Below are positions 2,879 through 63,969 of a stretch of DNA of 64,000 nt, one piece after another. Both the position numbers and the translations under genes were made by a program. Position 1 is the stretch's first letter; each line of letters begins with the position of its first letter. Source of the DNA: an uncultured beta proteobacterium (lineage in GTDB: Bacteria; Pseudomonadota; Gammaproteobacteria; Burkholderiales; SG8-39); contig CAWHBL010000008.1 in the NCBI GenBank assembly GCA_963827555.1, positions 69,135 to 133,134 on the forward strand, written 5' to 3'. The notes beneath the pieces are model-generated. The model made no database searches. It was given only the letters and a program-made list of their open reading frames with translations, and was not told the DNA's origin.

Positions 2879-2890
2879 CGACGTTGTCCT

Positions 2891-32143: not shown

Positions 32144-32174
32144 CGCGCAAAGCGCTCATTCGTTAGGGGGGTCG

Positions 32175-41737: not shown

Positions 41738-41739
41738 GA

Positions 41740-42564: not shown

Positions 42565-42586
42565 GAACTCGCGCTTTTTTGGGGAA

Positions 42587-43456: not shown

Positions 43457-43544
43457 GCCGGGCGCCGCGACCCCCGGCCGAGCCGAACGCTGAAGCGCCG
43501 ATGACCGTCGCTCATCGCGCATCCTTCGTCGTCGACCGCGGCCG

Positions 43545-45767: not shown

Positions 45768-45827
45768 CTACCCGACACACCACCGGGCATTGCGACCGGG
45801 GCTGACCGGCCTCAGCTACCAAGAATC

Positions 45828-46598
45828 ATGCGGATCCGGGTCCTCGGCTGCAGCGGCGGGATCGGTGGGCGCCACCTGCGCACCACCTCGATGCTGCTCG
45901 ACCGCGACATCCTGATCGACGCCGGCACCGGCGTCTGCGACCTCACGCTCGCCGAGCTCACACCGATCGACCACGTGTTCCTCACCCACTCGCACCTCGA
46001 CCACGTCGCGGCGATCCCGTTCATGGTCGACACCGTCGGCCAGATGCGCGACGAGCCGCTGACCGTGCACGCGATCCCGGCGACGATCGAGATCCTGAAG
46101 AACCACGTCTTCAACTGGTCGATCTGGCCGGATTTCACCCAGATCCCGAGCGCCGACCGCCCGTTCCTGCGCTACGAGACGATCGAGCTCGGCGCGTCGG
46201 CGGACCTCGGCGGCGGGCGCACGATCACCGCGCTCCCGGCCAACCACGTGGTGCCCGCGATCGGCTACCAGCTCGACAGCGGGAAGGGCAGCCTCGTCTT
46301 CACCGGCGACACCACCACCAACGACGAGCTGTGGGCGATCGTCAACAAGATCGCGAACCTCAAGCATCTCATCATCGAGTGCGCGTTCTGCAATCGCGAG
46401 AAGCAGCTCGCGATCATGTCGAAGCACCTGTGCCCGAGCATGCTCGCCGAGGAGCTCGCCAAGCTCGAGCGGAGCTGCGACATCTTCATCACTCATCTCA
46501 AGCCGGGCGAGATCGAGCTGACGATGGAGGAGATCGAGGAGTACGCGGGCCAGTACCGGCCGCGGATGCTCCAGAACAACCAGGTCCTCGAGTTCTAG
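45828..46598 (+). CDS. Class II 3',5'-cyclic-nucleotide phosphodiesterase (metallo-beta-lactamase fold)
   Basis: MRIRVLGCSGG, LIDAGTG, FLTHSHLDH, FTGDT, ITHLKP. Confidence 0.85.
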   Translation: MRIRVLGCSGGIGGRHLRTTSMLLDRDILIDAGTGVCDLTLAELTPIDHVFLTHSHLDHVAAIPFMVDTVGQMRDEPLTVHAIPATIEILKNHVFNWSIWPDFTQIPSADRPFLRYETIELGASADLGGGRTITALPANHVVPAIGYQLDSGKGSLVFTGDTTTNDELWAIVNKIANLKHLIIECAFCNREKQLAIMSKHLCPSMLAEELAKLERSCDIFITHLKPGEIELTMEEIEEYAGQYRPRMLQNNQVLEF

Positions 46599-46607
46599 GC
46601 GCCGGCC

Positions 46608-47681: not shown

Positions 47682-47958
47682 CCGCCGCGGGCGGATTCCT
47701 CCCGGCCCGGGTCTTGCATACTCGGCCCGATGGCGGGCGCGAAGGGTGCGCTCCAGGGTTACGACAGCATGCTCGGGGGTCGTTGTTTCGCTTGAAAAAA
47801 GCCGCAAGGAGCGGTGCCGCGCGGTTGCCCGGGCGCCGGGCGGACGCTAAATTTCGTGTTTGCCTCTCCGGGCGCAGTGGCGGCCGGAGCGGCGTTTCGC
47901 CGTGCGCGCCCGCCGGCGCGGCGACGGTATCGACGGCCATCCGACAGGACGTGACGCT

Positions 47959-50323
47959 ATGAGCGCAGTGCTTAGCCCCCATTCCGCCGCCGCCGGCGAC
48001 GTCAACACCCGGCTCGCGTTCCAGAAGTCCCTGCAGACCGTCACGAACCGGATCCACGCCACCAGCAACGTCGACGAGATCATGCTGGAGGTGTCGAGCG
48101 AGATCTGCAGCCTGTTCAACGCCGACCGGCTCACGATCTACGTCACGGCCGAGGACAAGGCGTCGATCATCTCCAAGGTCAAGACCGGCCTCAACTCGTT
48201 TCGCGACCTGAAGCTCCCGCTCGCCGAGCACTCGCTCGCCGGCTACGCCGGGATGTCGCGGAAGATGATGAACCTCCGCGACGTCTACGACGACGCCGAG
48301 CTGAAGAGCCACAACGCCAACCTGCGCTTCCTGCAGGAGGTGGACAAGCGCACCGGCTACCGCACCAAGCAGATGCTGGTGGCGCCGATCCTCGACGCGC
48401 CCGCGGGCGACCTGCTCGGCGTGGTCCAGCTGATCAACAGCAAGGCCGGCGGGCCGTTCAGCCCGCTCGCCGAAGAGGGCATGGTCGAGCTGTGCAAGAC
48501 GCTCGCGATCGCGCTCAAGCAGCGCGCGAAGCTCGCGATGCCGAAGTCGAAGTACGACTTCCTCGTCGCCGACGCGGAGATCTCGGCCGCCGAGCTCGAG
48601 ACCGCCGCGCGCAACGCGCGCAAGAAGGCGATCGACATCGAGACGGTGCTGGTCGAGGAGTGCAACGTCAAGCCGGCCTCGATCGGCGAAGCGCTCGCCA
48701 AGTTCTTCGGCGTCAAGTACGAGCCGTCACAAGCCGGACCGCGTCAAGCCGATGGATCTGCTCAAGAACCTCAAGCGCGAGTACGTCGCCGAGCACCAGT
48801 GGTGCCCGCTCGAGGAGAACCCGCAGGGGCTGCTGGTGATGTGCCTCGACCCGGAGCGGGTCAAGGCGTCGAGGGTCGTCAACAACATCTTCCCGAAGGC
48901 GCGGATCAAGTACGTCGTCACCACGCTCAAGGAGTTCAAGGATACGCTCGACCCGTTCTTCGGCGCCGCCGCCGACCTCGGCGACATCGGCGACCTGCTC
49001 GAGGGCCTGACCCCCGAGGAGGAAGGCGACCCGAACGCGACCGACGACCTCTCGGCGGCGGCCGACAACGAGCTGGTGAAGCTCGTGAACAAGATCATCG
49101 TCGACGCCTACAACCAGGGCGCCTCCGACATCCACATCGAGTCCTACCCGGGCAAGGCGAAGACCGAGATCCGGTTCCGCCGGGACGGGACGCTCGCGCC
49201 CTACATCGAGGTGCCGGCCTCCTACCGGAGCGCCCTCTGCGCGCGCCTCAAGATCATGTGCGACCTCGACATCTCCGAGCGCCGCAAGCCGCAGGACGGC
49301 AAGATCAAGTTCAAGAAGTTCGGTCCGCTCGACATCGAGCTGCGCGTGGCCACGATCCCGGTGCAGGGCGGCGTCGAGGACATCGTGATGCGTATCCTCG
49401 CCGCCGGCGAGCCGATCCCGCTCGACAAGCTGGGTCTCACGCCGCACAACCTGCCGCGGCTGAAAGCGGTCATCGAGAACCCGTACGGGTTGTTCTTCTG
49501 CTGCGGGCCGACCGGCTCGGGCAAGACGACCACGCTCCACTCGGTGCTCGGCCACCTCAACACGCCCGACACCAAGATCTGGACCGCGGAGGACCCGGTC
49601 GAGATCACGCAGAAGGGCCTGCGCCAGGTGCAGATCAACCGCAAGGCGGGGATGGACTTCCCGACGATCATGAAGGCGTTCCTGCGCGCCGACCCGGACA
49701 TCATCATGGTCGGCGAGATGCGCGACAAGGAGACGACCTCGATCGGCATCGAGGCCTCGCTCACCGGCCACCTCGTGTTCGCCACCCTGCACACGAACAG
49801 CGCGCCGGAATCGATCGTCCGACTGCTCGACATGGGCATGGACCCGTTCAACTTCGCCGATGCGCTGGTCGGCATCCTGGCGCAGCGACTCGCGAAGCGC
49901 CTGTGCGGGAAGTGCAAGCAGCCGTACAACCCGGGACAGGACGAGATCAAGGGACTGCTCCAGGAGTACTGCCAGGAGCTGCTCCACACGCCCGAGTTCA
50001 AGAAGGACGCGAAGGCCGGGTTCGAGCGCGTGTACAAGGACCTCGTCAAGACCTACGGCGACGACAAGGGCCAGTTCACGTTCTACCGCAAGGCCGGCTG
50101 CGACGCGTGCGGCAACTCCGGCTACAAGGGCCGGCTCGGCCTGCACGAGCTGCTGGTCGGCACCGACGCGATCAAGAAGAACATCCAGGAGCACGCGCGG
50201 GTCGCCGAGATGCTCGCGACCGCGCTCGAGGAAGGCATGCGCACGCTGAAGATGGACGGCATCGAGAAGGTCATGCAGGGCGTCACCGACATGGCCCAGG
50301 TCCGCGCGGTTTGCATCAAATAG
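47959..50323 (+). CDS. GAF - T2SSE_N - GspE/PilB-family hexameric secretion ATPase (orphan), one frame change as read
   Basis: GAF: NVDEIMLEVSSEICSLFNADRLTIYV...TGYRTKQMLVAPI...GVVQLINS. The frame changes near 48727-48730 between FFGVKYEP and KPDRVKPMDLLKNLKREY. ATPase: Walker A GPTGSGKTTT, Walker B DPDIIMVGEMRD, His box TGHLVFATLHTN, tetra-Cys CGKC...CDACG. Confidence 0.88.
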
Positions 50324-50475: not shown

Positions 50476-52183
50476 ATGAGCACGGTACCCAGCCTGGTCG
50501 CGGTCGGCCGCGAAGTCGAGCGCGGCGACGACGGAACGCCGGCCGACCTCTTCCGGCGGCTCGAGCAGCTGAACGAGATCGGCGCGGCGCTGTCGCTCGA
50601 GAGGAACCTCAACGCGCTGCTCGAGAAGATCCTGCTCGCGGTCAAGGCGATCACCCGCGCCGACGGCGGCACGCTGTACCTGGTCGAAGGCGAGGGCGCC
50701 GAGCAGGTGCTGCGGTTCGAGATCGTCCGCACCGCCTCGCTCGACGTCGCGATGGGCGGCACCACCGGCAACCCGATCCCGTTCTACCCGATCCACCTGT
50801 TCAAGAACGGCGACCCGAACACCTCCATGGTGGCGGCGTTCGCGGCGCTCACCGGCCAGACGGTGAACATCGCCGACGCCTACACCGAGGAGGGGTTCGA
50901 CTTCTCCGGCACGCGCGCGTTCGACGCCAAGACCGGCTACCGCTCGCAGTCGTTCCTGACCGTGCCGATGAAGAACCACGAGGCCGAGATCATCGGCGTC
51001 CTGCAGCTGATCAACTGCCAGGACCCGGACACCGGGGCGATCGCCCCGTTCTCGCCGTCGGATCAGCGGCTCGCCGAGTCGCTCGCCTCGCAGGCGGCGA
51101 TCGCGCTCACCAACCGCGCGCTGATCAACCAGCTCGAGCACCTGTTCGAGTCGTTCATCAACATGATCAACGAGGCGATCGACGAGAAATCGCCCTACAC
51201 CGGCGGCCACTGCCAGCGGGTGCCGACAGCTGACGATGATGCTCGCCGAGGCGGTGAACGACACGTTGGACGGCCCGCTGTCCGAGTTCACCATGACCGA
51301 GAAGGACCGCTACGAGCTCCGGATCGCGGGCCTGCTCCACGACTGCGGCAAGATCACCACCCCGGTCCACGTCGTCGACAAGGCGACCAAGCTCGAGACG
51401 ATCTTCGACCGCATCAACCTGATCGACACCCGGTTCGAAGTGCTCAAGCGCGACGCCGAGATCGACGCGCTCAACAAGAAACTCGAGCTCGCGCGCGGGG
51501 CGGGGGTGGACGAGATCACCCGGCGCGACCGCACCTACGCGATCGACGAGGAGCTGCGTGACACCGTGCGCCAGATCGAGGAGGACCGCAAGTTCCTCCG
51601 CCGCTGCAACATCGGCAGCGAGTCGATGTCGAAGGAGGAGCAGGACCGCGCCACCCAGATCGGGCTCGGCTACAAATGGCGCGACCCGATCGGCAACACC
51701 GCCGACTTCCTCACCGACGACGAGCTGAAGAACCTCACCATCTCGCGCGGTACCCTCACCCAGGAGGAGCGCGAGATCATCAACCACCACATCGTCTCGA
51801 CGATCAAGATGCTCGAGGCGCTGCCGTGGCCGAAGCACCTGCGCAACGTGCCGGAGTACGCCGGCGGCCACCACGAGCGCATGGACGGCAAGGGCTACCC
51901 GCGCGGGCTCACGCGCGACCAGATGTCGGTGCAGGCGCGGGTGATGGGCATCGCCGACATCTTCGAGGCGCTGACCGCCAAGGACCGTCCGTACAAGAAG
52001 GGCAAGACCCTGTCCGAGTCGCTGCACATCCTCGGGAAGTTCAAGCTGAACGGCCACATCGACCCGGACCTCTTCGACGTGTTCATCCGCCGGCGCGTCT
52101 ACCTCAAGTACGCGGAGCAGTTCCTCGACGCGGAGCAGATCGACCGCGTCGACGAGTCGAAGATCCCGGGGTACGTGCCGTAA
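50476..52183 (+). CDS. GAF - HD-GYP cyclic-dinucleotide phosphodiesterase-type protein, one frame change as read
   Basis: GAF: LNALLEKILLAVKAITRADGGTLYLV...TGYRSQSFLTVPM...GVLQLINC. The frame changes near 51226 between GGHCQRVP and QLTMMLAEAV. HD-GYP: AGLLHDCGKI ... GGHHERMDGKGYPRGL. Confidence 0.88.
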
Positions 52184-52274: not shown

Positions 52275-53966
52275 ATGCTCGCCAGCCTGTTCCGATCGCT
52301 TCGCTCCGGGCGGGCGGCGAAGCTGCATGACGAAGCGATCAGCCACTGGCATCGCAACGACATCGGTGGCGCCGAGCAGATCTTCCGCCGCGCCCTCGCG
52401 CTCAATCCCGGCCTCATGGCCGCATGGTCCAACCTCGGCCTAGTGCTGCGCGAGCAGGGTCGGGCGGAGGAGGCGATCGACTGCCTTGGCCGCGCGGTCG
52501 AGATCGCGCCGCGGAGCGCCGTCGCGCGCTTCAATCTGGCTGCCGCGCTGATGACTTCGGCGCGCACCGACGAGGCGCTTGTGCATTTTCGCGAGTCGAT
52601 CCGGCTCGATCCGGCGCTCGCACAGGCGCGGGCGACGATCGTCAAGCCGCTGCTCGACCGCTGCGACTGGGACGAGGCCGACGAGCAGGTCGCCGGCCTG
52701 GTCGAGCTGTGCCGCCGCGACCCGCGGGCGGCCGCCGCCGTCCCGCCATTCCTGTCGCTGCTTGTCGCCCTCGGGCCCGAGCTGCGGCTGACGATCGCCC
52801 GCGCGAACGCCGCGACGGTGGGCGCGAAGGTGCGATCGCTTCCGCGTCCGACGCGCGCCCGCGCGTCGAAAGGGGGCCGCCTGCGCATCGGCTACGTGTC
52901 GGCCGATCTGCACCAGCACGCCGTGGCGTTGACCGCGGTGCGCCTCTTCGAGCTTCACGATCGCGACCGCTTCGAGACCTTCGCCTATTCGTTCGACGCC
53001 GCGCCAGACAGCGCGATCCGGCGCCGTCTGCGGGGGGCATTCGAGCACTTTGTCGACGTGCAGGGGGAGGCGTTCGACGCGACCGCGCAGCGCATTGCGG
53101 CGGACGGCATCGACCTGCTCATCGACCTGATGGGCTACACCGCCGCGGCGCGCCCCGAGCTCTTCGCCCTCCGGCCCGCGCCGGTCCAGGCGGCTTTCCT
53201 CGGCTTCGCCGGGACCACCGGGGCCGACTACATGGACGCGATCATCGCCGATGCCGTGGCGATCCCGCCGACCGACGAGCGCTGGTATTCGGAACAGGTG
53301 GTGCGGATGCCGGCCACGTTCTTTCCGGTCGACGACCTGCGGGTGCTGCCCCGGCCGGCGGAGCGCGCGGCGTTCGGCCTGCCCGACGACGCCTTCGTGT
53401 TCGCCTCGTTCGGCCTGCACTGCAAGATCGAGCGCGACGTATTCGTCCGCTGGCTCGAGATCCTGAAGCGCGTGCCGGGCAGTCTGCTGTGGCTCTCGCG
53501 CGGTCCGGGCGAGGCGCGCCTGCAGCGCGCCGCCGCCGATGGCGGGGTCGATCCTGCGCGGCTGCGCTTCGCGTCGCGGCTGCCCGACGAGGCCGATTAC
53601 CTCGCGCGGCTACGGAGCGCTGATCTCTTCCTCGACACGCGGACCTACAACGCGCATTCGACCGGGGCCGACTCGCTGTGGGCGGGCCTTCCCGTGCTCA
53701 CGGTGCAGGGCGATGGGTTTGGAGGCCGGGTGGGCGCGAGCCTGGTCCAGGCGGCCGGGCTGCCCGAGCTGGTGGCGAACGATCTGGACGACTACGAGGC
53801 GCGTGCCGTCGGCCTTGCCGCCCATGGGCGCCTGCGGGCCATGCGTGCAGCCCTCGACGCCGATCGCGCGCGCGTCCGGCTGTTCGACTCGGCGCGGTTT
53901 GCGCGCGAACTGGAAGCGGTGTTCGAGGAAGCCGTCGTGCGGGCCGGGGCTGGGCGTCCCGCGTAG
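52275..53966 (+). CDS. TPR-repeat protein with a C-terminal GT41 (O-GlcNAc transferase / SPINDLY-like) glycosyltransferase domain
   Basis: TPRs: AEQIFRRALALNPG, GRAEEAIDCLGRAVEIAP. GT41 body: RLRIGYVSADLHQHAV, HDRDRFETFAYS, IDLLIDLMGYTAAARPELFALRPAPVQAAFLGFAGTTGADYMD, NAHSTGADSLWAGLPVLT. Confidence 0.85.
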   Translation: MLASLFRSLRSGRAAKLHDEAISHWHRNDIGGAEQIFRRALALNPGLMAAWSNLGLVLREQGRAEEAIDCLGRAVEIAPRSAVARFNLAAALMTSARTDEALVHFRESIRLDPALAQARATIVKPLLDRCDWDEADEQVAGLVELCRRDPRAAAAVPPFLSLLVALGPELRLTIARANAATVGAKVRSLPRPTRARASKGGRLRIGYVSADLHQHAVALTAVRLFELHDRDRFETFAYSFDAAPDSAIRRRLRGAFEHFVDVQGEAFDATAQRIAADGIDLLIDLMGYTAAARPELFALRPAPVQAAFLGFAGTTGADYMDAIIADAVAIPPTDERWYSEQVVRMPATFFPVDDLRVLPRPAERAAFGLPDDAFVFASFGLHCKIERDVFVRWLEILKRVPGSLLWLSRGPGEARLQRAAADGGVDPARLRFASRLPDEADYLARLRSADLFLDTRTYNAHSTGADSLWAGLPVLTVQGDGFGGRVGASLVQAAGLPELVANDLDDYEARAVGLAAHGRLRAMRAALDADRARVRLFDSARFARELEAVFEEAVVRAGAGRPA

Positions 53967-53989
53967 GCGCTCCGCGCCCGCGGCCGCGT

Positions 53990-56104
53990 TCAGCGTGGAA
54001 CGACGATGTGCTCCGGCGGCAGGCCGGCGACCGCGCGGTCCCGCATTGCGGCGTACGCCCACTCCAGCGCGCGGGTGTAGCCAGCACTGTCGAAGAGTGG
54101 CGCAGCCGGCGCCTGCGCGGCCAGGCGGGCGCGCAGCGCCGCGCGCCGCGGCGGCGTCTTCACCAGGTCGAGCACCAACGCGCGGTACTCGTCGAGCGAC
54201 CACGTCGCGAGCTCCCCGAGTCCGACCGCGCGCAGCAGGCTGGCCGCCACCCGCGAGGCGAACGTCTCGCCGGCGAGGGTGACCACCGGCACGCCGGCCC
54301 ATAGTGCGTCGCTGCAGGTGGTGTGCGCGCCGTACGGGAACGTGTCGAGGAACAGGTCGGCGCAGCGCATGCGGGCGATGTGGTCCTCGAGTCGCGGCAC
54401 GTACCCCGCGACGACCAGGCGCCCGCCGTCGATGCCACGCCGGGCGAGCTCGGCGCGCAGGTTCGCGATCGCCGCCCGATGCGACTCCACCATCCACAGC
54501 ACGGCACCCGGCGCGGCCGCGAGCGCTTCGCACCACACGTCGAGCACCGGCGGGGTCACCTTGTGCGCCTGATGGAAGCAGCACAGGACGAGGCCTTGCG
54601 CCGGCAGCCCGTACGCTTCGCGCGTCTGCGTGATGCCGACGGTCCGCTGACGGTCGTTCGGCTGGAAGCAGTGCGGGAGCTGCACGATCTTCTCGGCGTA
54701 GTGCGGCTCGAGCTCGAGCGGGGTGACCGTGGCGTCGCCGACGAGGTAGTCCATGAGCCCGGTTCCGAGCGTACCCGGAAAGCCGAGGTAGCCGACGAGC
54801 ACCGCCGCCGGTCGGCGGGCGAACACGCCGTGGCGCGCCCCGTTCGTGTATCCGTTGAGGTCGACCAGGATGTCGATCTCGTCGGCGTGGATCCTCGCCG
54901 CCGCGGCGGCGTCGCTCTCCGCCGCGATGTCGACGAAATCGTCGAACGCGCCCTCGAGGCGTCGCCGCATACCCCCGGACCGGGTCGCCGCGGTCGAGTA
55001 GGCGAGCACCTGGAAGGCGGCGCGATCATGCAGCTCGATCACTTCGGCGAGGAGCCGGGACACGGCGTGATCGCGGAAATCCGAGGAGACGTAACCCAGC
55101 CGGAGCCACTGGCGACGCGCCGGGTGTCGGACCGGGCAACGGGCGCTCCCGACGCGCCGGAGCGTGTGCGCTGCCCAGCGGTCGGCGACGCGGCGCAGCT
55201 CCGCCGCGCTGGCGGAGAACGAGCACCACACGAGCGGGTGCAGCACCGGGCCGCCGGAGTCGAGGGCGGCGCGCATCAGTGCCTGCTCGCGCTCGAGCCC
55301 GTTCCAGTCACAGGCCTGCAGCTTCTCGCGCAGCAGCCAGCCGAGCGCGTCGGCGTTGCCGGGCTCGAGCGCGAGCGCCGCCTCGAGCGCCGCGATGGCC
55401 TCGGGGCCGCGGCCGGCAAGGGCGAGGACGTTGCCGAGCGTGGCGTGCAGCGCGACCGAGCGGGGCGCGGCCGCGACGCCGGCGGTCAGCGCCGCGACGG
55501 ACTCCTCCAGCGCGCCCGCGTCGCGCAACGCCTCCCCGAGGCGGCAGTGCAGCGCCGCGTCGGCGGGGTCGAGCGCGACGGCGCGTCGCAGGACGTCTGC
55601 CGCCTGTCGCGGCCGGTGCGCCGCGAGGAGAGCAAGGCCGAGGTGGCCGAGCGCGGCGCTTGAGCCCGGTTCGGCGGCGACCGCCCGCTCCAGCGACGCG
55701 ATCGCGTCGTCCTCGCGCCCCTGCGCGACCAGCAGCGCGCCGAGCTCCGCGTGCGCCGCCGCGTTCACCGGCGCGTTGACCGGCGCGAGACGGATGGCTT
55801 CGCGATAGCACTGCACGGCGTCGTCAACCCGCTCGAGCCGCGCGTAGGCGCGGGCGAGGAAAAGTCGCGCTTCGGGGTCGCCGGGTGCCAGCGCGATCGC
55901 GCGTTCCAGCCTGGCTGCGGCGGCGTCGAACCGCCCGCGGTTGCCTTCCAGGAATCCGAGCAGGAACCAGGCGCGCGCGAAGGCCGGCGCTTCGGCAGTG
56001 ACGGCCTCGAGCAGGCTGGCGGCGGCGTCGAGCTGGCCCGCGCGGAAGCGTTCGCCAGCGGTCTTGAACCGCTCGGCGATGTCGGCCGGCAGGGAATCTC
56101 CCAC
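53990..56104 (-). CDS. TPR-repeat protein with a C-terminal GT41 (O-GlcNAc transferase-like) domain
   Basis: C-terminal 704 aa of ORF 53990..57910, with GTG at 56102-56104 as the first plausible start. At least 7 TPRs. LRLGYVSSDFRDHAV, HDRAAFQVLAYS, IDILVDLNGYTNGARHGVFARRPAAVLVGYLGFPGTLG, GAHTTCSDALWAGVPVVT. Confidence 0.82.
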   Translation of the reverse strand: MGDSLPADIAERFKTAGERFRAGQLDAAASLLEAVTAEAPAFARAWFLLGFLEGNRGRFDAAAARLERAIALAPGDPEARLFLARAYARLERVDDAVQCYREAIRLAPVNAPVNAAAHAELGALLVAQGREDDAIASLERAVAAEPGSSAALGHLGLALLAAHRPRQAADVLRRAVALDPADAALHCRLGEALRDAGALEESVAALTAGVAAAPRSVALHATLGNVLALAGRGPEAIAALEAALALEPGNADALGWLLREKLQACDWNGLEREQALMRAALDSGGPVLHPLVWCSFSASAAELRRVADRWAAHTLRRVGSARCPVRHPARRQWLRLGYVSSDFRDHAVSRLLAEVIELHDRAAFQVLAYSTAATRSGGMRRRLEGAFDDFVDIAAESDAAAAARIHADEIDILVDLNGYTNGARHGVFARRPAAVLVGYLGFPGTLGTGLMDYLVGDATVTPLELEPHYAEKIVQLPHCFQPNDRQRTVGITQTREAYGLPAQGLVLCCFHQAHKVTPPVLDVWCEALAAAPGAVLWMVESHRAAIANLRAELARRGIDGGRLVVAGYVPRLEDHIARMRCADLFLDTFPYGAHTTCSDALWAGVPVVTLAGETFASRVAASLLRAVGLGELATWSLDEYRALVLDLVKTPPRRAALRARLAAQAPAAPLFDSAGYTRALEWAYAAMRDRAVAGLPPEHIVVPR

Positions 56105-56139
56105 GGCGGTGAGGGCCGCGTGCGGCCCCTGGCGCGCGC

Positions 56140-56490
56140 CTAGTTCTTCTCGGCCGGCGTCGACTCGGTCGACGTCGGTGCGCCCCGAGTGATGTACACC
56201 ATCAGACCCTCGGTCGCGACCTCGATGAACTTTTCCGTGTACCCGAGTTCCTTCAACTGCCACTTGAATTCGTTGCCGAGCTTCGCCTTGCCGAACAGAC
56301 CGAGGCGGTTCGCCCGCTGGAACTCGGCGGCCTGCGCGAGCGTCTCCTCGAGCACCTTCGTGAGGCGGGCGGCCGAGATCTTCTTTTCCGGGCTCATGTC
56401 GAGCGCGGGTGGGTAGCGCTTCGCGAGCTGGCCAGCGAGCGCCTGCGCGAACTCGGTGACGTGCTTGGTCGAAAAGGGCCAGAACGGCAT
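56140..56490 (-). CDS. Hypothetical protein (116 aa)
   Basis: MPFWPFSTKHVTEFAQALAGQLAKRY.... Lies between the 2OG-oxygenase-like gene and the GT41 gene on the same strand. No family recognised. Slightly lower GC. Confidence 0.5.
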   Translation of the reverse strand: MPFWPFSTKHVTEFAQALAGQLAKRYPPALDMSPEKKISAARLTKVLEETLAQAAEFQRANRLGLFGKAKLGNEFKWQLKELGYTEKFIEVATEGLMVYITRGAPTSTESTPAEKN

Positions 56491-56531
56491 GTTGGTTGGT
56501 CTCCTGCGGCTTCGTTTCGCCTGCGCGTCTC

Positions 56532-57308
56532 TCAGGCCTTCTGCCAGAGTCGCGCGAGGCCGACCTTCTCCGGCGCCGGAGGCCGATTCCCCACCAGCTT
56601 CGTGACGTAGATGTTGTACAGCAGCAGATCGCGCGCGACGCCGGGGTCGGCGATCTGATCGACGCCGTGGAAGGCGCGGTCGGTCTTGAAGAACGCGAAC
56701 AGCGAGTTCGGCAGGAACGGCATCGTCGCCGCCTTGTGGAACCCTTCGAACGGATGGTGCGCGGCACCTTCGCAGCGCCGCGACGCGTCCTTCGGCACGT
56801 AGATGGACGTCCCCAGGTGACGCATCCTCTCGTCGCCGGGAAGATAGAAGAGCAGGGACACGAGCTTCCGCGGCATGTCGGTATGCGGCGTGATCGCGTA
56901 GTTGGTGAAGTCGCGCACCAGGCGGGAGTCGGTCTCGAACCGCGGCTCGACCCCAGCACCGAATCGTTCGTCCACTCCCTGTCGGAACTTGGCGATGAGC
57001 GCCTGCGCGAACGCGTCGGCCGACAGCCAGGAGTTGAGCGCGGCCCAGAAATTGCCCTGCCCGGCGGCGAACTCCTCCTCCTCGAGGTCGGAGAGCGAGC
57101 ACACGAAGCGCTCCTTGTATGCGCCCTTGGCCACCGTCCCGGTCTCGTCGAGGCGCTTGTACGTCGCGATCTCCGGCAGTCGCGCCCGCAGCTCGGCGTA
57201 GAAGTCCGCCGGGAAGACGTCGGTGACGTAGAAGTGCGGGAACGGATGCCGCAGCAGCGGGGCGTTCGCGATGCGGTACAGGACGTGGCTCTCAGCGTCG
57301 AAAGACAT
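56532..57308 (-). CDS. 2OG-Fe(II) oxygenase-like protein (putative hydroxylase)
   Basis: 258 aa. A possible facial triad H-x-D...H in AITPHTDMPRKLVSLLFYL and DRAFHGV. Assigned by motif only. Confidence 0.55.
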   Translation of the reverse strand: MSFDAESHVLYRIANAPLLRHPFPHFYVTDVFPADFYAELRARLPEIATYKRLDETGTVAKGAYKERFVCSLSDLEEEEFAAGQGNFWAALNSWLSADAFAQALIAKFRQGVDERFGAGVEPRFETDSRLVRDFTNYAITPHTDMPRKLVSLLFYLPGDERMRHLGTSIYVPKDASRRCEGAAHHPFEGFHKAATMPFLPNSLFAFFKTDRAFHGVDQIADPGVARDLLLYNIYVTKLVGNRPPAPEKVGLARLWQKA

Positions 57309-58068
57309 AGTTCCCCACTCCCTGGAATGCCCCGGCGGTACGCTGCGCGCGGTCGACCTGCCCTTGCGAGTAGTCGAAACCGAGCGCGAGCATCAGGTCC
57401 ACGATCTCCCAATGCTCGTCGAGCGTGGAGTTGATCTCGATCAGGACCGACCGCACGCGCCGGTCGGCGAGCGTCGAGCGCCCGCCCGCGATCACCTTCG
57501 GCTCGATCCCGTCGACGTCGACCTTCACGTGCGTCGGAACCGGGATCGCCCCGCTCGCCACCAGCCCGTCGAGCGTGGCCGACACGCTCCCCTGCGTGAA
57601 CGCGGACGCCCGCGGCCGGTTGTGATGGTCGAGCGACTCGCCGAAGCTGTGGCACGAGCCGCCGGCGCCAAGGTCGCTGAGATGGAGCGGCCCGAGGCCG
57701 GCCGAGTCGGACAGCGCGATGCAGTAGGCCCGCACGAGGCCGTCGAGGCCGTTCGCCTGGATGTTGCGGTTGAGCAGCGCGTAGTTCTGGCTCTCGGGCT
57801 CGAATGCGAACACGCGCACGCCGCGGGTCTTCGCCGCCCAGATCGCGTACATGCCGACGTTCGCGCCCACGTCCACGAGCACGTCGGCGGCGTCGAAACC
57901 GGCGATCCACTCGATCGTGTCCGGTTCCTTGGTGAAGAGCGTGTCGGCGCGCCAGAGCGTCTGGCGATTCGGCGTCGCGAACACGGCCCGCGCGCCGTCG
58001 CGCTCGACCACGCGGTGGGGGGCGAGGGCTTCGTACTCCGCGATGTCCAGGGTCGACGTGGCGTTCAT
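57292..58068 (-). CDS. FkbM-family SAM-dependent methyltransferase
   Basis: VLVDVGANVGMYAIWAA, VFAFEPESQNYALLNRNI, VKVDVDGIE. Its 3' end overlaps the next gene by 17 nt. Confidence 0.8.
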   Translation of the reverse strand: MNATSTLDIAEYEALAPHRVVERDGARAVFATPNRQTLWRADTLFTKEPDTIEWIAGFDAADVLVDVGANVGMYAIWAAKTRGVRVFAFEPESQNYALLNRNIQANGLDGLVRAYCIALSDSAGLGPLHLSDLGAGGSCHSFGESLDHHNRPRASAFTQGSVSATLDGLVASGAIPVPTHVKVDVDGIEPKVIAGGRSTLADRRVRSVLIEINSTLDEHWEIVDLMLALGFDYSQGQVDRAQRTAGAFQGVGNYVFRR

Positions 58069-58323
58069 CTTCCGCGCGGGGGGTGCCGGAGCTCGCTCGC
58101 AGCGGCGGCTAGTCTCAGCTCCGCTCGGCTCCGGCGAACTCAGCTAGTGTACCCAGCGTCCGCGCCGACTGTCCACGCTCAATCCGCCCGCGAGCGCACA
58201 ATTTCCTCGTCCGGCCGGGGCGCCGCTGGCGCCGATTGCGGATCCGCTGCGGTCGTGACCTATGCACGTCCGCACCGCGGACCGCGGCCTATAATTCGAG
58301 GTCGCACGCACGAGGACAACGTC

Positions 58324-58992
58324 ATGACTTTCAGCCGGGCGAACCCCAGCCCTCGCTACGAGGCGCTCGCCCGCCAGTACCGGCAGATGCATGTCGAGGG
58401 GGAGCGCTTCCTCGGCATCCCCGCGCAGAACACCTTTCCCGGTCAGAGCCTGCCGGCGCAGGCCGACCGCATCAAGCAGCTGATCGTCGCGACCGGGGCG
58501 CAGAACGTCCTCGACTACGGCTGCGGCAAGGGGCTGCAGTACGACCTGCGCGGCATCCGCGGCCCCGACGGCCGGAGCCACGAGTCGATCCAGGACTACT
58601 GGGACGTCGACTACATCCAGTGCTACGACCCGTGCTACGAGCCGTTCAGCCGGCTCCCGGCGGGTCGGTTCGACGGCGTCATCTGTACCGACGTGCTCGA
58701 GCACTGTCCCGAGGAAGATCTCGACTGGATCGTGGGCGAGCTGTTCGCTTACGCGCAGCGCTTCGTGTTCGCCAGCATCGCGTGCTACCCGGCGAGGAAG
58801 CGCCTGCCCTCCGGCGAGAACGCCCACACGACGATCCGGCCACCCGACTGGTGGCGCGCGCTGTTCGAACGCACGGCGGCCGCGCACCCGGGCCTCGTCT
58901 GGCAGGCCTGGATCGAGCAGCTGCAGGACACGACGACCGGGCCGAAGAAGGTGGAGGACTGCATCGGGTCGGCCGCGACGGGGCCGTCGTGA
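58324..58992 (+). CDS. Class I SAM-dependent methyltransferase-like protein
   Basis: Motif I VLDYGCGKG. Post-I/II FDGVICTDVLEHCPEEDL. The stop overlaps the GTG of the next gene as GTGA. Confidence 0.65.
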   Translation: MTFSRANPSPRYEALARQYRQMHVEGERFLGIPAQNTFPGQSLPAQADRIKQLIVATGAQNVLDYGCGKGLQYDLRGIRGPDGRSHESIQDYWDVDYIQCYDPCYEPFSRLPAGRFDGVICTDVLEHCPEEDLDWIVGELFAYAQRFVFASIACYPARKRLPSGENAHTTIRPPDWWRALFERTAAAHPGLVWQAWIEQLQDTTTGPKKVEDCIGSAATGPS

Positions 58993-59712
58993 TCCGGGTC
59001 TTCATCGGCTACGATCCGCGCGAGGCGGTCGCCTTCAGCGTGCTCGCGCACAGCATCCACCGCGCGCGCCAGCGCGCCGGTCGCCATCGCGCCGCTGATG
59101 CTGAGCCAGCTCGGCGCGGAGCTTACGCCGCGAGCGCCATCCGCTGCAGTCGACCGATTTCTCGTTCTCGCGCTTCCTCACGCCGTATGCTGTCGGGCTA
59201 TCGAGGGCTGGGCGCTGTTCATGGACTGCGACATGCTGATGCTGGACGACGTCGCGCGGCTCTGGGCGCTGCGCGACGAGCGCTACGCGGTGCATGGTGG
59301 TCAAGCACGACCACGTGCCGCAGCGAGACGGTCAAGTTCCTCGGCCAGCCGCAGACCAGCTACGCGAAGAAGAACTGGTCGAGCGTGATGCTGTTCAACA
59401 ACGCGCGCTGCCGCGCGCTCACGCCCGAGTACGTGAACACGGCCTCCGGCCTGGAGCTGCACCAGTTCAAGTGGCTCGACGGCGATGCACTGATCGGCGC
59501 GCTGCCGCACCGCTGGAACCACCTGGTGGGCTACGACCCGCCGCGCGCCGGACGTGGCGCTCGTGCACTACACGCTCGGCGGGCCATACTTCGCCGAGTA
59601 CCGCGACTGCGAGTACGCCGCGGAGTGGCGCGCGGAGCGCGAAGCGATGCTGTACGCCGAGGAGCGATCGCCGCGTGCGGCCGCGAAGTCGGCCTCCGGT
59701 CAGTCCGTCTAG
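58989..59712 (+). CDS. GT8-like (DxD) glycosyltransferase, about 7 frame changes as read
   Basis: Reassembled from three frames: VIRVFIGYDPREAVAFSVLAHSIH / RASAPVAIAPLMLSQLGAELT / RERHPLQSTDFSFSRFLTPY / LSGYR / GWALFMDCDMLMLDDVARLWALRDERYAV / MVVKHDHVPQ / ETVKFLGQPQTSYAKKNWSSVMLFNNARC...HRWNHLVGYDPPRA / DVALVHYTLGGPYF.... Stop TAG at 59710-59712. Confidence 0.65.
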
Positions 59713-59772
59713 GGTCGCGGCGGCGGCAACCGCCTCGGAGCGCGCTTCACTCTTCCCACCGGCCGGCCGGCG

Positions 59773-61635
59773 ATGCTCAAGAAGCTGTGGGGCGAACTCG
59801 GACGGCGTCCGCGCACGCCGTCCCGTGCGGCGCCCGCCGGGGACGCTCTGGGCGAGGTCTACGCCGCGCTCGGGCGCGGTGAGTTCGAACCGGCCGCCTC
59901 CCGCCTCGCCGACCTCGACCCTCGCGACCCTGCGCTCGCTCCCGGCGCGTGCCGCCTCGGCGAGGATCGTCTCGGCCGCGGCGAGGAGGCCACCGCCATC
60001 GACTGGTTCTTCCGGGCGCTCAGCGCGGATCCGCTCAGTGCCCGGGCGCGGGCGGGGCTGGGTGCCGCCTACCTCGCGGCCGGGGACCTCGAGGAAGCGA
60101 TGTTGCAGCTCACGCTCGCACGCCGCTTGCGTCCCGGCGACGCCCAGTCGGCCGTCCGCCAGGGGCAGATCCAGCTCGCGTGGGGCAATCTCGATCTCGC
60201 CGCCCAGGCGCTCGAGGAGGGGCTCGTGCTCGACCCCGGCCAGCCGTTCGGCTGGAACGATCTCGGCATCCTGCGTCAGCGCGGCGGACAGCTGGCGGAG
60301 GCCGCGCGGTGCTTCCGTCGCGCGGTGGCGCTGGATCCGGCGTTCGCGACGGCGCACGCGAACTTCGGGCTCGCGCTCCGCGAGCTCGAGCGTAGCGACG
60401 AAGCGCGCGCCGCGCTCGAGCGCGCCGTCGCCTTGCGGCCCGGCAGCGCGGACAACAACGTCAACCTCGGGACCGTGCTTCAGGATCTGGGCGACTCGGC
60501 GGGCGCCGAGCAGTGCTACGAGCGCGCGCGGGCGCTCGATGGCCGGCACCCGGAGGCGCTGCTCGGCCTCGGCACGACCTGCCAGCGTCGCGGCGAGCTG
60601 GCCGTCGCCGAAAGCTGGTTCGTTCGCGCCCTCGCCGCGCGACCGGGGTTCGCGGCGGCGCGAACCGCGCTCGGCGAGATCAGGCTGGCTCGCGGCGAGT
60701 TCGGGTCGGGGTGGGCAGACTACGAGTCCCGTCTCGCGGCCGGTGCGGGTCATCGGTTGCCGATCCCGCTGCCGGATTGGACCGGTGAGCCGATGCGGGC
60801 CGGGACGCTGCTCGTGTACTGGGAGCAGGGCCTCGGCGATATCGTCCTCTTCGCTTCCTGCGTGGCGGAGGCGGCTGCGCGGGTCGGGCGACTGGTGATC
60901 GAGGTCCCGCCGGCGCTCGAGCGCCTGTTCGCCCGATCGTTCCCGGAAGCGGTGCTCAGTTCGCGGCTGCGTGAGAACCCGGCGGCGGAGCTCGAGCGCG
61001 TGGGACGCGTCGACGCCGCCGTGGCGGTCGGTAGCCTGATGCGGATCTTCCGCTCCGCGCCGGGATCGTTTCCGCGACACCGCGGTTACCTGGCGGCGGA
61101 CCACGGCCGCGTGGCGGTGTGGCGCGAGCGCCTGCGCACGCTTGCCGCGGCGCGAGTGATCGCGCTCTCGTGGCGCGGCGGACTTGCGCGGACCGGGCGT
61201 GCGCAGCGGTCGCTCGGCCTGGAAGCGCTCCGACCGGCGCTGTCAGTGCCGGATATCGCCTGGGTCAGCGTGCAATACGGCGCGCCGGGGGCCGAGCTTG
61301 CGGAGTTGCAGGCCGCGACCGGCATCCGGGTGCACCACTGGGACGAGGTCGCCGGAGATCTCGACGAGGTGGCGGCGCTAATGACTGCGGCCGGCGGGGT
61401 GCTCACGGTGTGCAACACCAACGCCCACCTCGCGGGGGCACTCGGCGTCCCGGTCGGGGTGCTTGCGCCCCAAGGGGTTTCGTGGCGCTATCAGGCCACG
61501 GGCAGAACCATACCCTGGTATCCGTCCGCTACCGTGTTCCGCCAGACGCGGTCCGGCGACTGGCAGGCGCCGATCGCCGACGTCGAGCGCGCGCTTCGCG
61601 CGGGCGCCTTCCCCGGGCCGGCGAATGCCGATTGA
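59773..61635 (+). CDS. TPR-repeat protein with a C-terminal GT9 (heptosyltransferase-like) glycosyltransferase fold
   Basis: Multiple TPRs, for example AARCFRRAVALDPAFATAHANFGLAL. C-terminal LLVYWEQGLGDIVLFASC, VIALSWRGG, LDEVAALMTAAGGVLTVCNTNAHLAGALGVPVGVL. Confidence 0.78.
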   Translation: MLKKLWGELGRRPRTPSRAAPAGDALGEVYAALGRGEFEPAASRLADLDPRDPALAPGACRLGEDRLGRGEEATAIDWFFRALSADPLSARARAGLGAAYLAAGDLEEAMLQLTLARRLRPGDAQSAVRQGQIQLAWGNLDLAAQALEEGLVLDPGQPFGWNDLGILRQRGGQLAEAARCFRRAVALDPAFATAHANFGLALRELERSDEARAALERAVALRPGSADNNVNLGTVLQDLGDSAGAEQCYERARALDGRHPEALLGLGTTCQRRGELAVAESWFVRALAARPGFAAARTALGEIRLARGEFGSGWADYESRLAAGAGHRLPIPLPDWTGEPMRAGTLLVYWEQGLGDIVLFASCVAEAAARVGRLVIEVPPALERLFARSFPEAVLSSRLRENPAAELERVGRVDAAVAVGSLMRIFRSAPGSFPRHRGYLAADHGRVAVWRERLRTLAAARVIALSWRGGLARTGRAQRSLGLEALRPALSVPDIAWVSVQYGAPGAELAELQAATGIRVHHWDEVAGDLDEVAALMTAAGGVLTVCNTNAHLAGALGVPVGVLAPQGVSWRYQATGRTIPWYPSATVFRQTRSGDWQAPIADVERALRAGAFPGPANAD

Positions 61636-63304
61636 GCCGACGGCGGGCCCGCTCGCGCGCGGTGTGGAGCTGCTCGCGGCGGGCGACCTGGACGGCGCGG
61701 AGCGCGCGCTCGCCTCGGCGCTCGCGGCCGGCGACGGGGTGGCGGCCGCGATGAGGGGGCTCGCGCGCATCGCGGTCGAGCGCGGCGCGGGGGCCGCGGC
61801 GATCGACTGGTTCGAGCGGGTGATGGCCGAGGATCCGGCCGACGCCGCTACCGGCGTCGAGCTCGCGCGGCTGCTCTCCCAATCGGGTCGCGGCGAGGAT
61901 GCGCGCGACACGCTCCTGGTCGCGGTTCATCACCGGCCGGATCACGCCGAGGCGTGGCACCAGCTCGGCCTGCTCGACGTCGCGGCCGGCAGGTTCGACG
62001 AGGCGGCGGAGCACTTCGGAACGGCCGCCGCGGCGGCGCCGTCACGGCCCGATGCGAGGATCGAGCTTGCCCGGCTCGCCGTGCGCCGGACCCGCTGGGA
62101 GGACGCGGTGGCGCACTACCGCTCCGCGCTCGCCCTCGGACCGTGCAGTGCGCAGGTGTACGGCGAGCTGGCGAACGCGCTGATCCCGCTCCAGCGCAAC
62201 GCGGAGGCCCTCGAGATCTTCGCCGGCCTGCGTGCGCAGTACCCCTGGTCGAACGTCCCGCGCATCGGCTACGCCAACGTGCTGCTGCAGGTGGGACGAT
62301 TCGACGAGGCGCTGGCCGAGTACGACGCGGCGCTCGAGGGTGAGCCGAACAACTACTTCGCGCGCTGGCACCGCTCGCAGCTGCTGCTCATGCGTCACCG
62401 ATTCGCCGAAGGCTGGCCCGGCTACGAGAGCCGGCTGCTCGGGCAGGTTGAGAACCTGCCGCGACCGTTTCCGCTGCCACGGTGGCGCGGCGAGCCGCTC
62501 GACGGCAAGTCGATCCTCGTGTACGGGGAGCAGGGCGTCGGGGACGAGATCATGTTCGCGTCCTGCTTCGCCGACCTGATCGCCCGCGCGCGCCGAGTGG
62601 TGATCGAGTGCCGGCCGAAGCTCCAGCGCCTGTTCGCACGGTCGTTCCCCGCGGCGTCGATCCTCGTCACCGAGGGCGTTCCGATCGAGCAGACGCTCAC
62701 CGCCCTCGAAGGCGTCGACTGTCATGTGCCCGCCGGCAGCCTGCCCCCGCACTTTCGTCTCGCCGCCGACCGGTTCCCCGGCACGCCGTACCTGCGCGCC
62801 GATCCGGCTCGCGTCGCGCACTGGCGAGCGGCCCTCGCCTCGCTCGGACCGGGGCTCAAGGTCGGGATCTCGTGGCGCGGCGGTTCGGTCCGGACGCGGC
62901 GGGATGCGCGCTCGGTCCCGCTGGTCGGATGGTCACCGGTGCTCGACCTGCCGGGGTGTCGCTTCGTCAGTCTGCAGTACGACGCCGCGGCCGGCGACTT
63001 CGCTGCCGTCGGCGACCGGGTGACGCACTGGTCGGAGGCGATCGACGACTACGACGAGACCGCGGCGCTCGTGGCCGCCCTCGACGTAGTCGTCACCGTG
63101 TGCACGTCGCTGGTCCATCTTTCTGGCGCGCTCGGGCAGCGCACCTGGGTGCTGGTGCCGACCGTTCCCGAATGGCGGTACGGGTTGAGCGGGTCCCGCA
63201 TGCCCTGGTACGCGAGCGCGGAGCTCGAGCGCCAGGGCCCGGCCGAGGACTGGCCAGCGGTGCTTGGTCGCATCGCACACCGGCTCGTCGGCCTCGCGTC
63301 CTAG
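61625..63304 (+). CDS. TPR-repeat protein with a C-terminal GT9-like fold; paralogue of the preceding gene
   Basis: ATG at 61625 overlaps the previous gene by 11 nt. [63 protein letters not shown]. Confidence 0.78.
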
Positions 63305-63492: not shown

Positions 63493-63509
63493 GTGGCACG
63501 GTTAGTGCT
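63493..63509 (+). promoter_or_regulatory. Sigma-54 (-24/-12) type promoter upstream of the pilin gene
   Basis: gTGGCACGgttaGTGCt against the consensus TGGCACG-N4-TTGCW, with correct GG/GC spacing. It lies about 47 nt upstream of the ATG at 63556. Confidence 0.55.
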
Positions 63510-63555: not shown

Positions 63556-63969
63556 ATGAAGTCGATTCAGAAGGGTTTCACCCTGATCGAACTGATGATC
63601 GTGGTTGCGATCATCGGGATTCTGGCGGCGGTCGCGCTGCCGGCGTATCAGGACTACACGATTCGCGCCCGCACTTCGGAACTGATGCTTGCCGCGAGCT
63701 CCGCGCGCACGGCGGTCACCGAAGCGGCACAAGGGCTCAACAGCATGACCGGGTCGGGGTCGGGTCTGACCATCGGCGTGGGCGGCCTGCTTTCGGGCGC
63801 CACGGTGAGCACAGCCGGTCTGATCACGATCGCCGGCAACAGCTCGATGGGCACCACCGGCATCACGGTGACGCTGACTCCGTCGTGGAACGGGACGGCG
63901 AACACGGTGACCTGGTCGTGCGAGGTTGCGCCGATCAAGTACGCGTCGTCGGCCTGCCGGACCGACTAA
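63556..63969 (+). CDS. pilA: Type IVa major pilin
   Basis: RBS AAGGGAG. Prepilin leader MKSIQKG followed by [32 protein letters not shown]-terminal disulfide loop C...C ([15 protein letters not shown]). Confidence 0.9.

Follow-up and report, generated by a model that had tools for sequence, protein, structure and literature searches.

The DNA analyzed here is a stretch of 64,000 nucleotides (positions 69,135 to 133,134 of contig CAWHBL010000008.1, assembly GCA_963827555.1; hereafter, the window) from an uncultured betaproteobacterium of the Burkholderiales, near whose end lies an island of glycosyltransferase, methyltransferase and oxygenase-like genes followed by a type IV pilin gene. As the G+C content of the window is approximately 70%, raw lists of open reading frames (ORFs) are swamped by shadow frames; the real frames were chosen by position-specific GC (GC3) content, and then examined by profile searches (Pfam and NCBIfam). 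Sizeable ORFs were annotated throughout the window and along the 10 kb past its end, the latter on a 123-kb ENA metagenome contig (ERZ25039531; locus L001) that was found by exact-sequence look-up and encodes the same pilin protein.

The original prediction, made from the sequence without database searches, had described the island as two convergent genes for tetratricopeptide repeat (TPR) proteins with a GT41 (OGT-like) glycosyltransferase domain, a minus-strand unit with an FkbM methyltransferase, a 2-oxoglutarate (2OG)/Fe(II)-oxygenase-like protein and a 116-amino acid (aa) protein, and a plus-strand unit with an S-adenosylmethionine (SAM) methyltransferase-like, a GT8-like and two TPR-GT9-like genes. 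The features that emerged from our analysis are collected in Table 1.

Table 1. Genes and regulatory features of the island and its flanks (positions refer to the window; E, expectation value).
Feature	Position	Strand	Basis
GAF + MshEN + T2SSE, PilB-like pilus extension ATPase; split near 48.70-48.73 kb	47860-50323	+	Pfam
GAF + HD-GYP, probable cyclic di-GMP (c-di-GMP) phosphodiesterase; frameshift near 51.15-51.24 kb	50476-52183	+	Pfam
TPR-GT41 'a', 563 aa, XcOGT type	52275-53966	+	PF13844 E 7e-84, TPRs
TPR-GT41 'b', 704 aa from GTG at 56104	53990-56104	-	PF13844 E 2e-83, about 7 TPRs
116-aa protein	56140-56490	-	No Pfam/NCBIfam match
2OG/Fe(II)-oxygenase-fold protein, 258 aa	56532-57308	-	Invariant residues, AlphaFold2 (AF2) model, Foldseek
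FkbM-family SAM methyltransferase, 258 aa	57292-58068	-	PF05050 E 3e-12; TIGR01444 E 5e-26, above cut-off
Class-I SAM-methyltransferase-like protein, 222 aa	58324-58992 (start could be 58147 or 58255)	+	Methyltransf_23 E 1e-4, sub-threshold
GT8-like (GT-A, DxD) glycosyltransferase gene, broken	58989-59712	+	Pieces in several frames
FlmG-like TPR-glycosyltransferase 'a', 620 aa, N-terminal TPRs and C-terminal GT-B domain	59773-61635	+	TPRs, fold, FlmG homology
FlmG-like TPR-glycosyltransferase 'b', 559 aa, pilin-proximal paralogue	61625-63304	+	FlmG homology
Sigma-54-type -24/-12 element	63494-63509	+	Read from sequence, 5' of pilin gene
Major-pilin gene of type IVa (137 aa), the first in a tandem array of three	63556-63969	+	Leader, Pfam, TIGR02532

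The two GT41 genes are convergent, as described, with 23 nucleotides (nt) between them. Their products match the Glyco_transf_41 profile with 282.4 bits (frame 52275-53966) and 280.8 bits (frame 53990-56263), against a cut-off of 25 bits, and both carry N-terminal arrays in which several TPR families score above threshold; the 704-aa version of GT41 'b' is also called on the source contig. The closest solved bacterial structure to both proteins is XcOGT (XCC0866) of Xanthomonas campestris (PDB 2jlb/2vsy), which is of equal size, aligns end to end (residues 29-553 aligned with GT41 'a', E 5e-82; E 2e-76 for GT41 'b', which matches human OGT with E 4e-106) and shares the nucleotide-sugar-binding motifs. 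Unlike the window genes, XcOGT has nothing that ties it to pilins, and to our knowledge its natural substrate has not been established. GT41 'a' keeps the 2jlb motifs GYVS..H, CK(I/L) and LFLDT..YNAH(S/T)T..D.LW.G.PVLT, and GYVS, CK(I/L) and LDT..NAH(S/T)T are also visible in GT41 'b'. The catalytic residues among these motifs are assigned by analogy with human OGT and with K445 of the Synechococcus elongatus Ogt (PMC9306852).

For the two genes at the end of the plus-strand unit, described before as TPR-GT9-like, the TPRs and the GT9-type fold were confirmed, but by sequence the proteins belong to the FlmG family. The AF2 model of the FlmG-like C-terminal domain (predicted local distance difference test, pLDDT, 90.6) consists of two Rossmann-like lobes and matches GT-B enzymes, the best Foldseek matches being 3tov, 1psw (WaaF), 2gt1/2h1h (WaaC) and 4rb4 (TibC), with E from 3e-7 to 1e-4 and TM scores of 0.5-0.58. 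However, the C-terminal 320 aa of both proteins have no Pfam match: the GT9 profile PF01075 gave E 0.22 and 0.25 (11 bits versus a cut-off of 22), TIGR02193 gave E 0.011 (15 bits versus 185), and a PDB sequence search with the domain returned no match. Filing under GT9 was therefore rejected, since the profiles lie far under their cut-offs and the fold alone agrees, and 'GT9-like' is to be taken as a statement on fold and not on family membership. Among the best structural matches, the GT9-fold enzymes WaaC/WaaF and the bacterial autotransporter heptosyltransferases TibC/AAH share 11-16% sequence identity with the domain; the latter, unlike the FlmG-like proteins, lack a TPR domain and form iron-containing dodecamers.

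FlmG-like 'a' is 32% identical over 590 aa (E 2e-58), and 'b' 31% identical over 581 aa (E 4e-50), to the protein P0255, named by NCBI 'flagellin modification protein FlmG'. P0255 is itself 68% identical to a 593-aa family member from Phenylobacterium that is encoded beside three FljK-like flagellins. Given these end-to-end alignments, the two genes are members of the FlmG family, in the pilin-associated clade described below. The C-terminal domain family comprises more than 1800 matches at E<=1e-5, nearly all annotated merely as 'tetratricopeptide repeat protein', and 50 positions are invariant across 13 sequences, including EQGLGD and, in the C-terminal block, PWYP..R.FRQ..GDW, where the conserved motif reads PWYPS.RLFRQ..GDW. 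The overlapping stop and start codons reported for the plus-strand unit do exist, the start of 'b' overlapping the stop of 'a' by 11 nt.

The original prediction had missed the pilin gene, which lies 250 bp beyond FlmG-like 'b' and still inside the window. It had proposed that flagellin genes or other Ser/Thr-rich substrates be sought just beyond the window; no flagellin was found in the window, whereas a Ser/Thr-rich pilin was, its first copy already within the window. The predicted protein has the short basic leader MKSIQKG, cleaved before FTLIELM... (with Glu5), its alpha1-N helix is hydrophobic, and two Cys near the C-terminus delimit a predicted disulfide loop; the N_methyl and Pilin Pfam domains are recognized on the source contig, and TIGR02532 scores above its cut-off (E 5e-10). 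Serine and threonine make up 30% of its globular part, and 21-32% across 31 aligned orthologous pilins. On the source contig, past the window, two further near-identical tandem pilin genes are followed by two more FlmG-like TPR-glycosyltransferase genes, both frameshifted and on the strand opposite to the pilins, so that the enzymes bracket a triple pilin array. Upstream of the first pilin gene we read the sigma-54-type element TGGCACGGTTAGTGCT. Elements of this type recur in related loci at a fixed distance: of 34 pilin genes, 12 have one that lies 77-101 nt 5' of the codon for the Gly-Phe cleavage site, which is more than 60-fold over background (0.006 expected per 220 nt); with a promoter of its own, the pilin is not simply co-transcribed with the enzymes.

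Further downstream, approximately 4.5 kb of the ENA contig (L001 15200-19900) is almost devoid of GC3 coding signal, and the gene caller gives there only short ORFs without Pfam match, before soxZ/soxY.

Conservation of the island around pilin genes

Related loci were collected by a scan with the C-terminal domain, keeping one genome per species, which yielded 79 loci; pilins were detected with a regular expression for prepilin N-termini and by tblastn, for which all island proteins served as queries. Many Beta- and Gammaproteobacteria have the island next to type IV pilin genes in tandem: of the 79 loci, 19 contain one to four tandem type IVa pilin genes, truncated by the end of the contig in two cases. 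In most loci whose gene order was mapped, an FlmG-like gene directly abuts the downstream pilin on the same strand, and the gene immediately 5' of the pilin is best matched by FlmG-like 'b', with 45-55% identity. In the 79-locus scan, the pilins are surrounded by genes for the 116-aa protein, the oxygenase, FkbM, the class-I methyltransferase and an intact GT8, together with one to five FlmG-like and zero to three GT41 genes; PilB-like and HD-GYP genes also recur around them.

A neighbour-joining tree of 153 C-terminal domains grouped 44 of the 48 pilin-locus domains in a single clade of 65, which received none of the 12 domains from flagellin loci. Likewise, a complete pilin gene was present in the fetched DNA of 17 of 30 clade loci and of 0 of 49 loci outside (Fisher p 1.5e-9), a p-value that overstates independence and is indicative only, because the clade loci are phylogenetically related. 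Two further clade loci hold a pilin gene cut by the contig end, and most of the others either come from short contigs or show other markers of the island on a sequence that ends before the pilin side. Flagellin genes adjoin distant family members in nine loci, from metagenome-assembled genomes (MAGs) labelled Chromatiaceae, Planctomycetota, Acidobacteriaceae, Chloroflexota and Phenylobacterium, and one labelled Bifidobacterium.

The synteny is replicated in three independent records, namely the complete genome of the cultured Methylococcus sp. Mc7 (CP079095.1, island at about 3.178-3.192 Mb; locus L081), a 621-kb contig from JGI, and a clean Burkholderiales MAG (locus L084). The MAG has a single FlmG-like gene and, directly after its two pilins, five TPR-GT41 genes in tandem (L084 12377-19617), an extreme expansion of OGT-like paralogues.

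The island of Methylococcus sp. Mc7 also contains genes for a GT2 glycosyltransferase, a DegT aminotransferase, an FdtA ketoisomerase and a GNAT acetyltransferase (L081 14264-17430). Together, these genes would make up a pathway of the dTDP-3-acetamido-3,6-dideoxyhexose type, which suggests that at least some islands supply their own unusual donor sugar. DegT, FdtA, acetyltransferase and GT2 genes are found in some related islands, but a sugar pathway is not encoded in the window island.

Accessory and upstream genes

The minus-strand unit was confirmed, the oxygenase with the help of additional evidence. The FkbM gene overlaps the oxygenase gene by 17 nt. For the 258-aa protein that the original prediction called oxygenase-like, Pfam and NCBIfam returned nothing useful, even at E 10, and its approximately 918 homologues are all 'hypothetical'. 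Its AF2 model (pLDDT 90.7) has 348 Foldseek matches at E<=1e-3, with PasI (9ei6), PolD (9blq), PHD2, Tpa1 and P4H at the top, and also OGFOD1. Moreover, H142, D144, H214 and R226, invariant in 25 homologues, correspond to the HxD...H iron triad and the 2OG-binding arginine, so that the predicted assignment as a 2OG/Fe(II) oxygenase is borne out as far as fold and motifs go. The idea that this enzyme hydroxylates the proline of a pilin 'LTPS' motif was dropped as unsupported, as the proline is kept in nearly all of the 31 pilins, with or without the oxygenase. A second, different 2OG/Fe(II) oxygenase, of the prolyl-4-hydroxylase type (PF13640), lies between FlmG-like genes in another related locus (L020 13590-14312).

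The 116-aa protein gave no match in Pfam or NCBIfam, even at E 10, yet it has 354 representatives at E<=1e-3, all of about 100-115 aa. Among the 79 related loci, 20 encode it, which makes it the commonest island component after the FlmG-like genes, and wherever the order was mapped its gene adjoins HD-GYP or sits at the island edge.

On the plus strand, the class-I methyltransferase-like protein earned its name through sub-threshold profile matches and the glycine-rich motif NVLDYGCGKG; its orthologues in related islands are 51-65% identical. The GT8-like gene fared less well. Its conserved pieces fall successively in frames 2, 0, 1, 0, 2 and 0, which implies at least five frame changes, and the reconstructed protein, in spite of a DxD-like motif (FMDCDML), reached only E 6e-4 and 20.0 bits with PF01501, under the cut-off of 24.3. 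Intact orthologues of approximately 235 aa, with 70-81% identity, are nevertheless found elsewhere (L027, L013, L010 and L043).

Upstream of the island, the frame 47860-48700 encodes a GAF domain and the frame 48728-50323 the MshEN and T2SSE domains (E 5e-114), which form a single 790-aa protein in the Burkholderiales MAG L084; this GAF-PilB gene is a conserved island neighbour, present in 13 of the 79 related loci. Similarly, the GAF domain in 50476-51150 and the HD_5 domain in 51236-52183 (E 1.5e-42) belong to one 551-aa protein in L084, also a conserved neighbour of the island. A conserved order leads up to them: a CHASE2 adenylate/guanylate cyclase, a class-II cyclic AMP (cAMP) phosphodiesterase, a cyclic nucleotide (cNMP)-binding/rhodanese protein, GAF-MshEN-PilB and GAF-HD-GYP. 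The signalling cluster occupies 39227-47681 of the window, with a CHASE2 Ser/Thr kinase, a PP2C phosphatase and an FHA protein further upstream, and the cyclase, cAMP phosphodiesterase and cNMP-binding/rhodanese genes are kept 5' of GAF-PilB in L007, L011, L015, L016, L021, L022, L043 and L084. The entire module recurs in other genomes, the cultured Methylococcus among them, with the cyclic-nucleotide genes first, then GAF-PilB and GAF-HD-GYP, the glycosylation genes next and the pilins last. Because of these conserved upstream genes, the island belongs to a cyclic-nucleotide-regulated type IV pilus module, and their predicted functions hint at cAMP and c-di-GMP control of this pilus.

The remaining genes of the window are of ordinary metabolism. 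They include five genes for TctC ('Bug') periplasmic receptors and a tctCBA transporter set (299-7061 and 30603-33668); numerous receptors of this kind are typical of Burkholderiales, which fits with the betaproteobacterial relatives of the island.

A possible cytoplasmic route of pilin glycosylation and its alternatives

We propose, with a probability of roughly 0.6, that the island enzymes glycosylate the adjacent Ser/Thr-rich type IV pilins in the cytoplasm. The case for the pilin as substrate consists of synteny and homology. The original prediction had argued for a protein-directed toolkit rather than for polysaccharide synthesis, and this is supported here by the homology to FlmG and GT41, by the lack of export genes and by the pilin synteny: four of the five glycosyltransferases do carry TPR arrays, and both TPR-glycosyltransferase families, GT41/OGT and FlmG, have characterized members that modify proteins. 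In addition, no signal peptides or transmembrane segments were found in the island enzymes, and inspection of the window, of the 10 kb that follow and of the gaps of 17 related islands brought up no genes for lipid carriers, flippases, polymerases, exporters or oligosaccharyltransferases.

In the proposed pathway, the GT41 and FlmG-like enzymes would bind the newly made prepilin, the presumed acceptor, through their TPR arrays, and would move sugars from nucleotide-sugar donors to Ser/Thr hydroxyls before translocation of the globular domain. The GT8-like enzyme, intact in relatives and broken here, may extend the glycan; the FkbM and class-I methyltransferases may O-methylate sugars; and the 2OG/Fe(II) oxygenase may hydroxylate, oxidize or epimerize a sugar or a pilin residue, with the conserved 116-aa protein as a putative additional factor. 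The modified pilin would then be inserted, processed and polymerized by a pilus machine that includes the GAF-PilB ATPase and the GAF-HD-GYP regulator. As the copy numbers of TPR-glycosyltransferases and pilins vary between genomes, a diversification of the pilus surface is suggested, for instance against pilus-specific phages.

Such a route is plausible in view of several precedents. TibC, AAH and HMW1C glycosylate autotransporters and adhesins in the cytoplasm before their export by Sec, so that a cytoplasmically glycosylated protein can still cross the inner membrane. The cyanobacterial Ogt/OgtA (S. elongatus, Nostoc punctiforme) is, as here, a TPR-GT41 encoded beside tandem pilA genes; it adjoins pilA in 38% of 201 genomes, is required for the GlcNAc (N-acetylglucosamine) modification of PilA and for normal piliation, and, having no secretion signal, was proposed to act in the cytoplasm (PMC9306852). 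That case involves one enzyme in another phylum, whereas the window has two GT41 genes (up to five in relatives) and adds FlmG-like, GT8-like, methyltransferase and oxygenase genes; we liken the two by description and not by sequence. Finally, FlmG is the Caulobacter flagellin O-glycosyltransferase, in which the TPR domain binds flagellin and the GT-B domain selects the donor, CMP-activated pseudaminic or legionaminic acid (PMC7591256; bioRxiv 10.1101/2022.03.25.485807). FlmG of C. crescentus and Brevundimonas and the window proteins are alike in being soluble and cytoplasmic, in joining an N-terminal TPR array to a C-terminal GT-B domain of approximately 320 aa, and in having the genes of tandem filament-subunit paralogues as neighbours; FlmG modifies its subunit before export, and the same order is proposed for the pilin. 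On the other hand, the window proteins have a pilin neighbour, form their own clade with up to five paralogues per locus, and are not accompanied by pseudaminic or legionaminic acid genes; a pilin would moreover leave via Sec and the inner membrane, and not through the flagellar type III export apparatus. Since their neighbour is a pilin and not a flagellin, they are members of the FlmG family by sequence but probably not functional equivalents of FlmG.

Several points weigh against cytoplasmic pilin glycosylation, besides the relatedness of the clade loci mentioned above. The main difficulty is that type IV prepilins are generally inserted co-translationally via the signal recognition particle (SRP) and Sec, which leaves little time for the cytoplasmic modification of a domain destined for the periplasm. 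Moreover, a donor-sugar pathway is absent from this island, and the genes for CMP-pseudaminic or CMP-legionaminic acid used by FlmG were not seen, as neither nonulosonic-acid synthase nor CMP-transferase genes appeared in the window or in the related-island gaps inspected. The name FlmG is that given by NCBI to P0255, and it is with this protein, rather than with the C. crescentus sequence, that the comparison was made. Lastly, the GT8-like, GAF-PilB, GAF-HD-GYP and two downstream FlmG-like genes are frameshifted in this assembly, and therefore the locus could be partly inactive here, or the assembly error-prone.

The first alternative is that the enzymes act on other proteins (a flagellin encoded elsewhere, PilB and the regulators, or, in the manner of eukaryotic OGT, many cytoplasmic proteins), and that adjacency to the pilin reflects co-regulation. 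GT41 enzymes can indeed have many substrates, the characterized FlmG enzymes act on flagellins and other members of the family adjoin flagellin genes, the topology of prepilins is awkward for cytoplasmic modification, and the pilin has its own sigma-54-type promoter. However, flagellin was discarded as the target, for no flagellin gene was found between 28 and 64 kb of the window, and all 30 loci of the pilin clade likewise gave none; in most loci the FlmG-like gene abuts the pilin on the same strand, with GT41 genes flanking the other side of the pilins; and in cyanobacteria a GT41 encoded beside pilA affects pilin glycosylation (PMC9306852). We therefore regard this alternative as unlikely.

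A rather improbable second possibility, compatible with cytoplasmic pilin glycosylation as far as this type of island is concerned, is that the island was once functional and is decaying in this genome, its broken genes being real pseudogenes. The numerous frame changes of the GT8-like gene, with indels outside homopolymer runs, would agree with decay, as would the splits of GAF-PilB and GAF-HD-GYP, fused in relatives, and those of the downstream FlmG-like genes. Nevertheless, frame splits occur throughout the window, housekeeping genes included: in the regions 10751-13084, 22598-25382, 27800-29531 and 29736-30518, the coding frame of the elongation factor EF-G is missing the N-terminal part, formate-tetrahydrofolate ligase is in frame for no more than its last 130 residues, the gene for a molybdopterin oxidoreductase is divided between frames, and TerC is incomplete. 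Such defects suggest a metagenome assembly prone to indels and possibly made from long reads, to which we attribute most of the frame splits, rather than to biology. Furthermore, the window and the ENA contig differ at 43 positions over 10.3 kb, and 32 of these differences, eight of them single-base indels, crowd into approximately 680 bp of the GT8-like gene (window 59037-59713, L001 5488-6158), the remainder of the overlap being approximately 99.9% identical. Both versions of the gene contain frameshifts, and the hotspot could be consensus noise, a strain mixture or recombination; the placement of the indel differences within it looks more like consensus noise than fixed mutations, and the intact genes retain a strong GC3 coding signal.

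A third view, that the enzymes build a polysaccharide or a lipid-linked glycan (lipopolysaccharide core, exopolysaccharide or a pilus-associated matrix), finds some ground in the GT9 fold of the C-terminal domain, shared with lipopolysaccharide heptosyltransferases, and in the GT8, GT2, FkbM and DegT/FdtA genes of some islands, which are also common in O-antigen loci. Yet, in agreement with the original prediction, which took adjacent export genes outside the window as the sign of such a locus, no nucleotide-sugar, Wzx/Wzy, ABC exporter, ligase or oligosaccharyltransferase genes were found between 28 and 64 kb or in the 10 kb beyond, nor was a gene for an outer-membrane polysaccharide export (OPX) protein or an initiating phosphoglycosyl transferase. 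In the related islands inspected, too, Wzx/Wzy, ABC transporter, OPX, ligase, initiating phosphoglycosyl transferase and oligosaccharyltransferase genes were looked for and not found. As every GT-B enzyme of the island carries a protein-binding TPR array, and the sequence relatives of known function (FlmG, OGT) modify proteins, a polysaccharide locus was rejected as very unlikely. Finally, it is very improbable that the TPR proteins are pilin-binding chaperones or assembly factors with catalytically inert glycosyltransferase-like domains, as might be suggested by the known pilus assembly factors PilF/PilW and by the labels 'PilF' or 'TadD' that JGI gives to many family members, since the invariant C-terminal positions and the motifs of the solved OGT are kept, PilF/PilW are periplasmic lipoproteins whereas the window proteins lack a signal peptide, and methyltransferase and sugar-pathway genes co-occur with the TPR proteins.

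Implications for pilin glycosylation

Current accounts place the glycosylation of proteobacterial pilins in the periplasm and assign it to oligosaccharyltransferases such as PilO/TfpO, PglL and TfpW. These systems share their substrate class, the type IVa major pilins, with the pathway proposed here, but the enzymes are polytopic membrane proteins that transfer lipid-linked glycans in the periplasm, and no such gene is present in the window island. The likely pay-off, an altered pilus surface and phage resistance, is also shared (PMC11841053). To date, the cytoplasmic route has been documented with flagellins and with the pilins of cyanobacteria, the link between Ogt and PilA being the precedent. 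In a 2025 review on bacterial O-glycosylation, GT41/OGT and a cytoplasmic route for pilins go unmentioned, and FlmG is cited for flagellin only. In the literature searched, we found no prior description of FlmG-like or GT41 enzymes acting on proteobacterial pilins, although coverage was incomplete and this absence is weak evidence.

More broadly, we give even odds to the existence, in Beta- and Gammaproteobacteria, of a widespread and modular pathway of cytoplasmic pilin glycosylation free of oligosaccharyltransferases, in which FlmG-type enzymes re-targeted from flagellins would add diverse, methylated glycans before the pilin crosses the membrane. In such a pathway, the FlmG-type enzymes would work together with GT41 and GT8-like glycosyltransferases, methyltransferases, the 2OG oxygenase and the 116-aa factor, and the number of enzymes (one to five per family) and of pilin copies (one to four) would set strain-specific pilus surfaces.

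If this is true, the FlmG family of flagellin glycosyltransferases has a large pilin-associated clade, and the cyanobacterial link between Ogt and PilA reaches the Proteobacteria, where it is enzymatically much richer. Heavily modified proteins would then be able to pass through the prepilin insertion pathway, and a function would be at hand for the more than 1800 'tetratricopeptide repeat' proteins, as well as for the 258-aa and 116-aa 'hypothetical' families. The separate acceptor-binding and donor-selecting domains would, in addition, provide modular parts for glyco-engineering. As Methylococcus sp. Mc7 is a cultured carrier of the pilin island, the question is directly testable.

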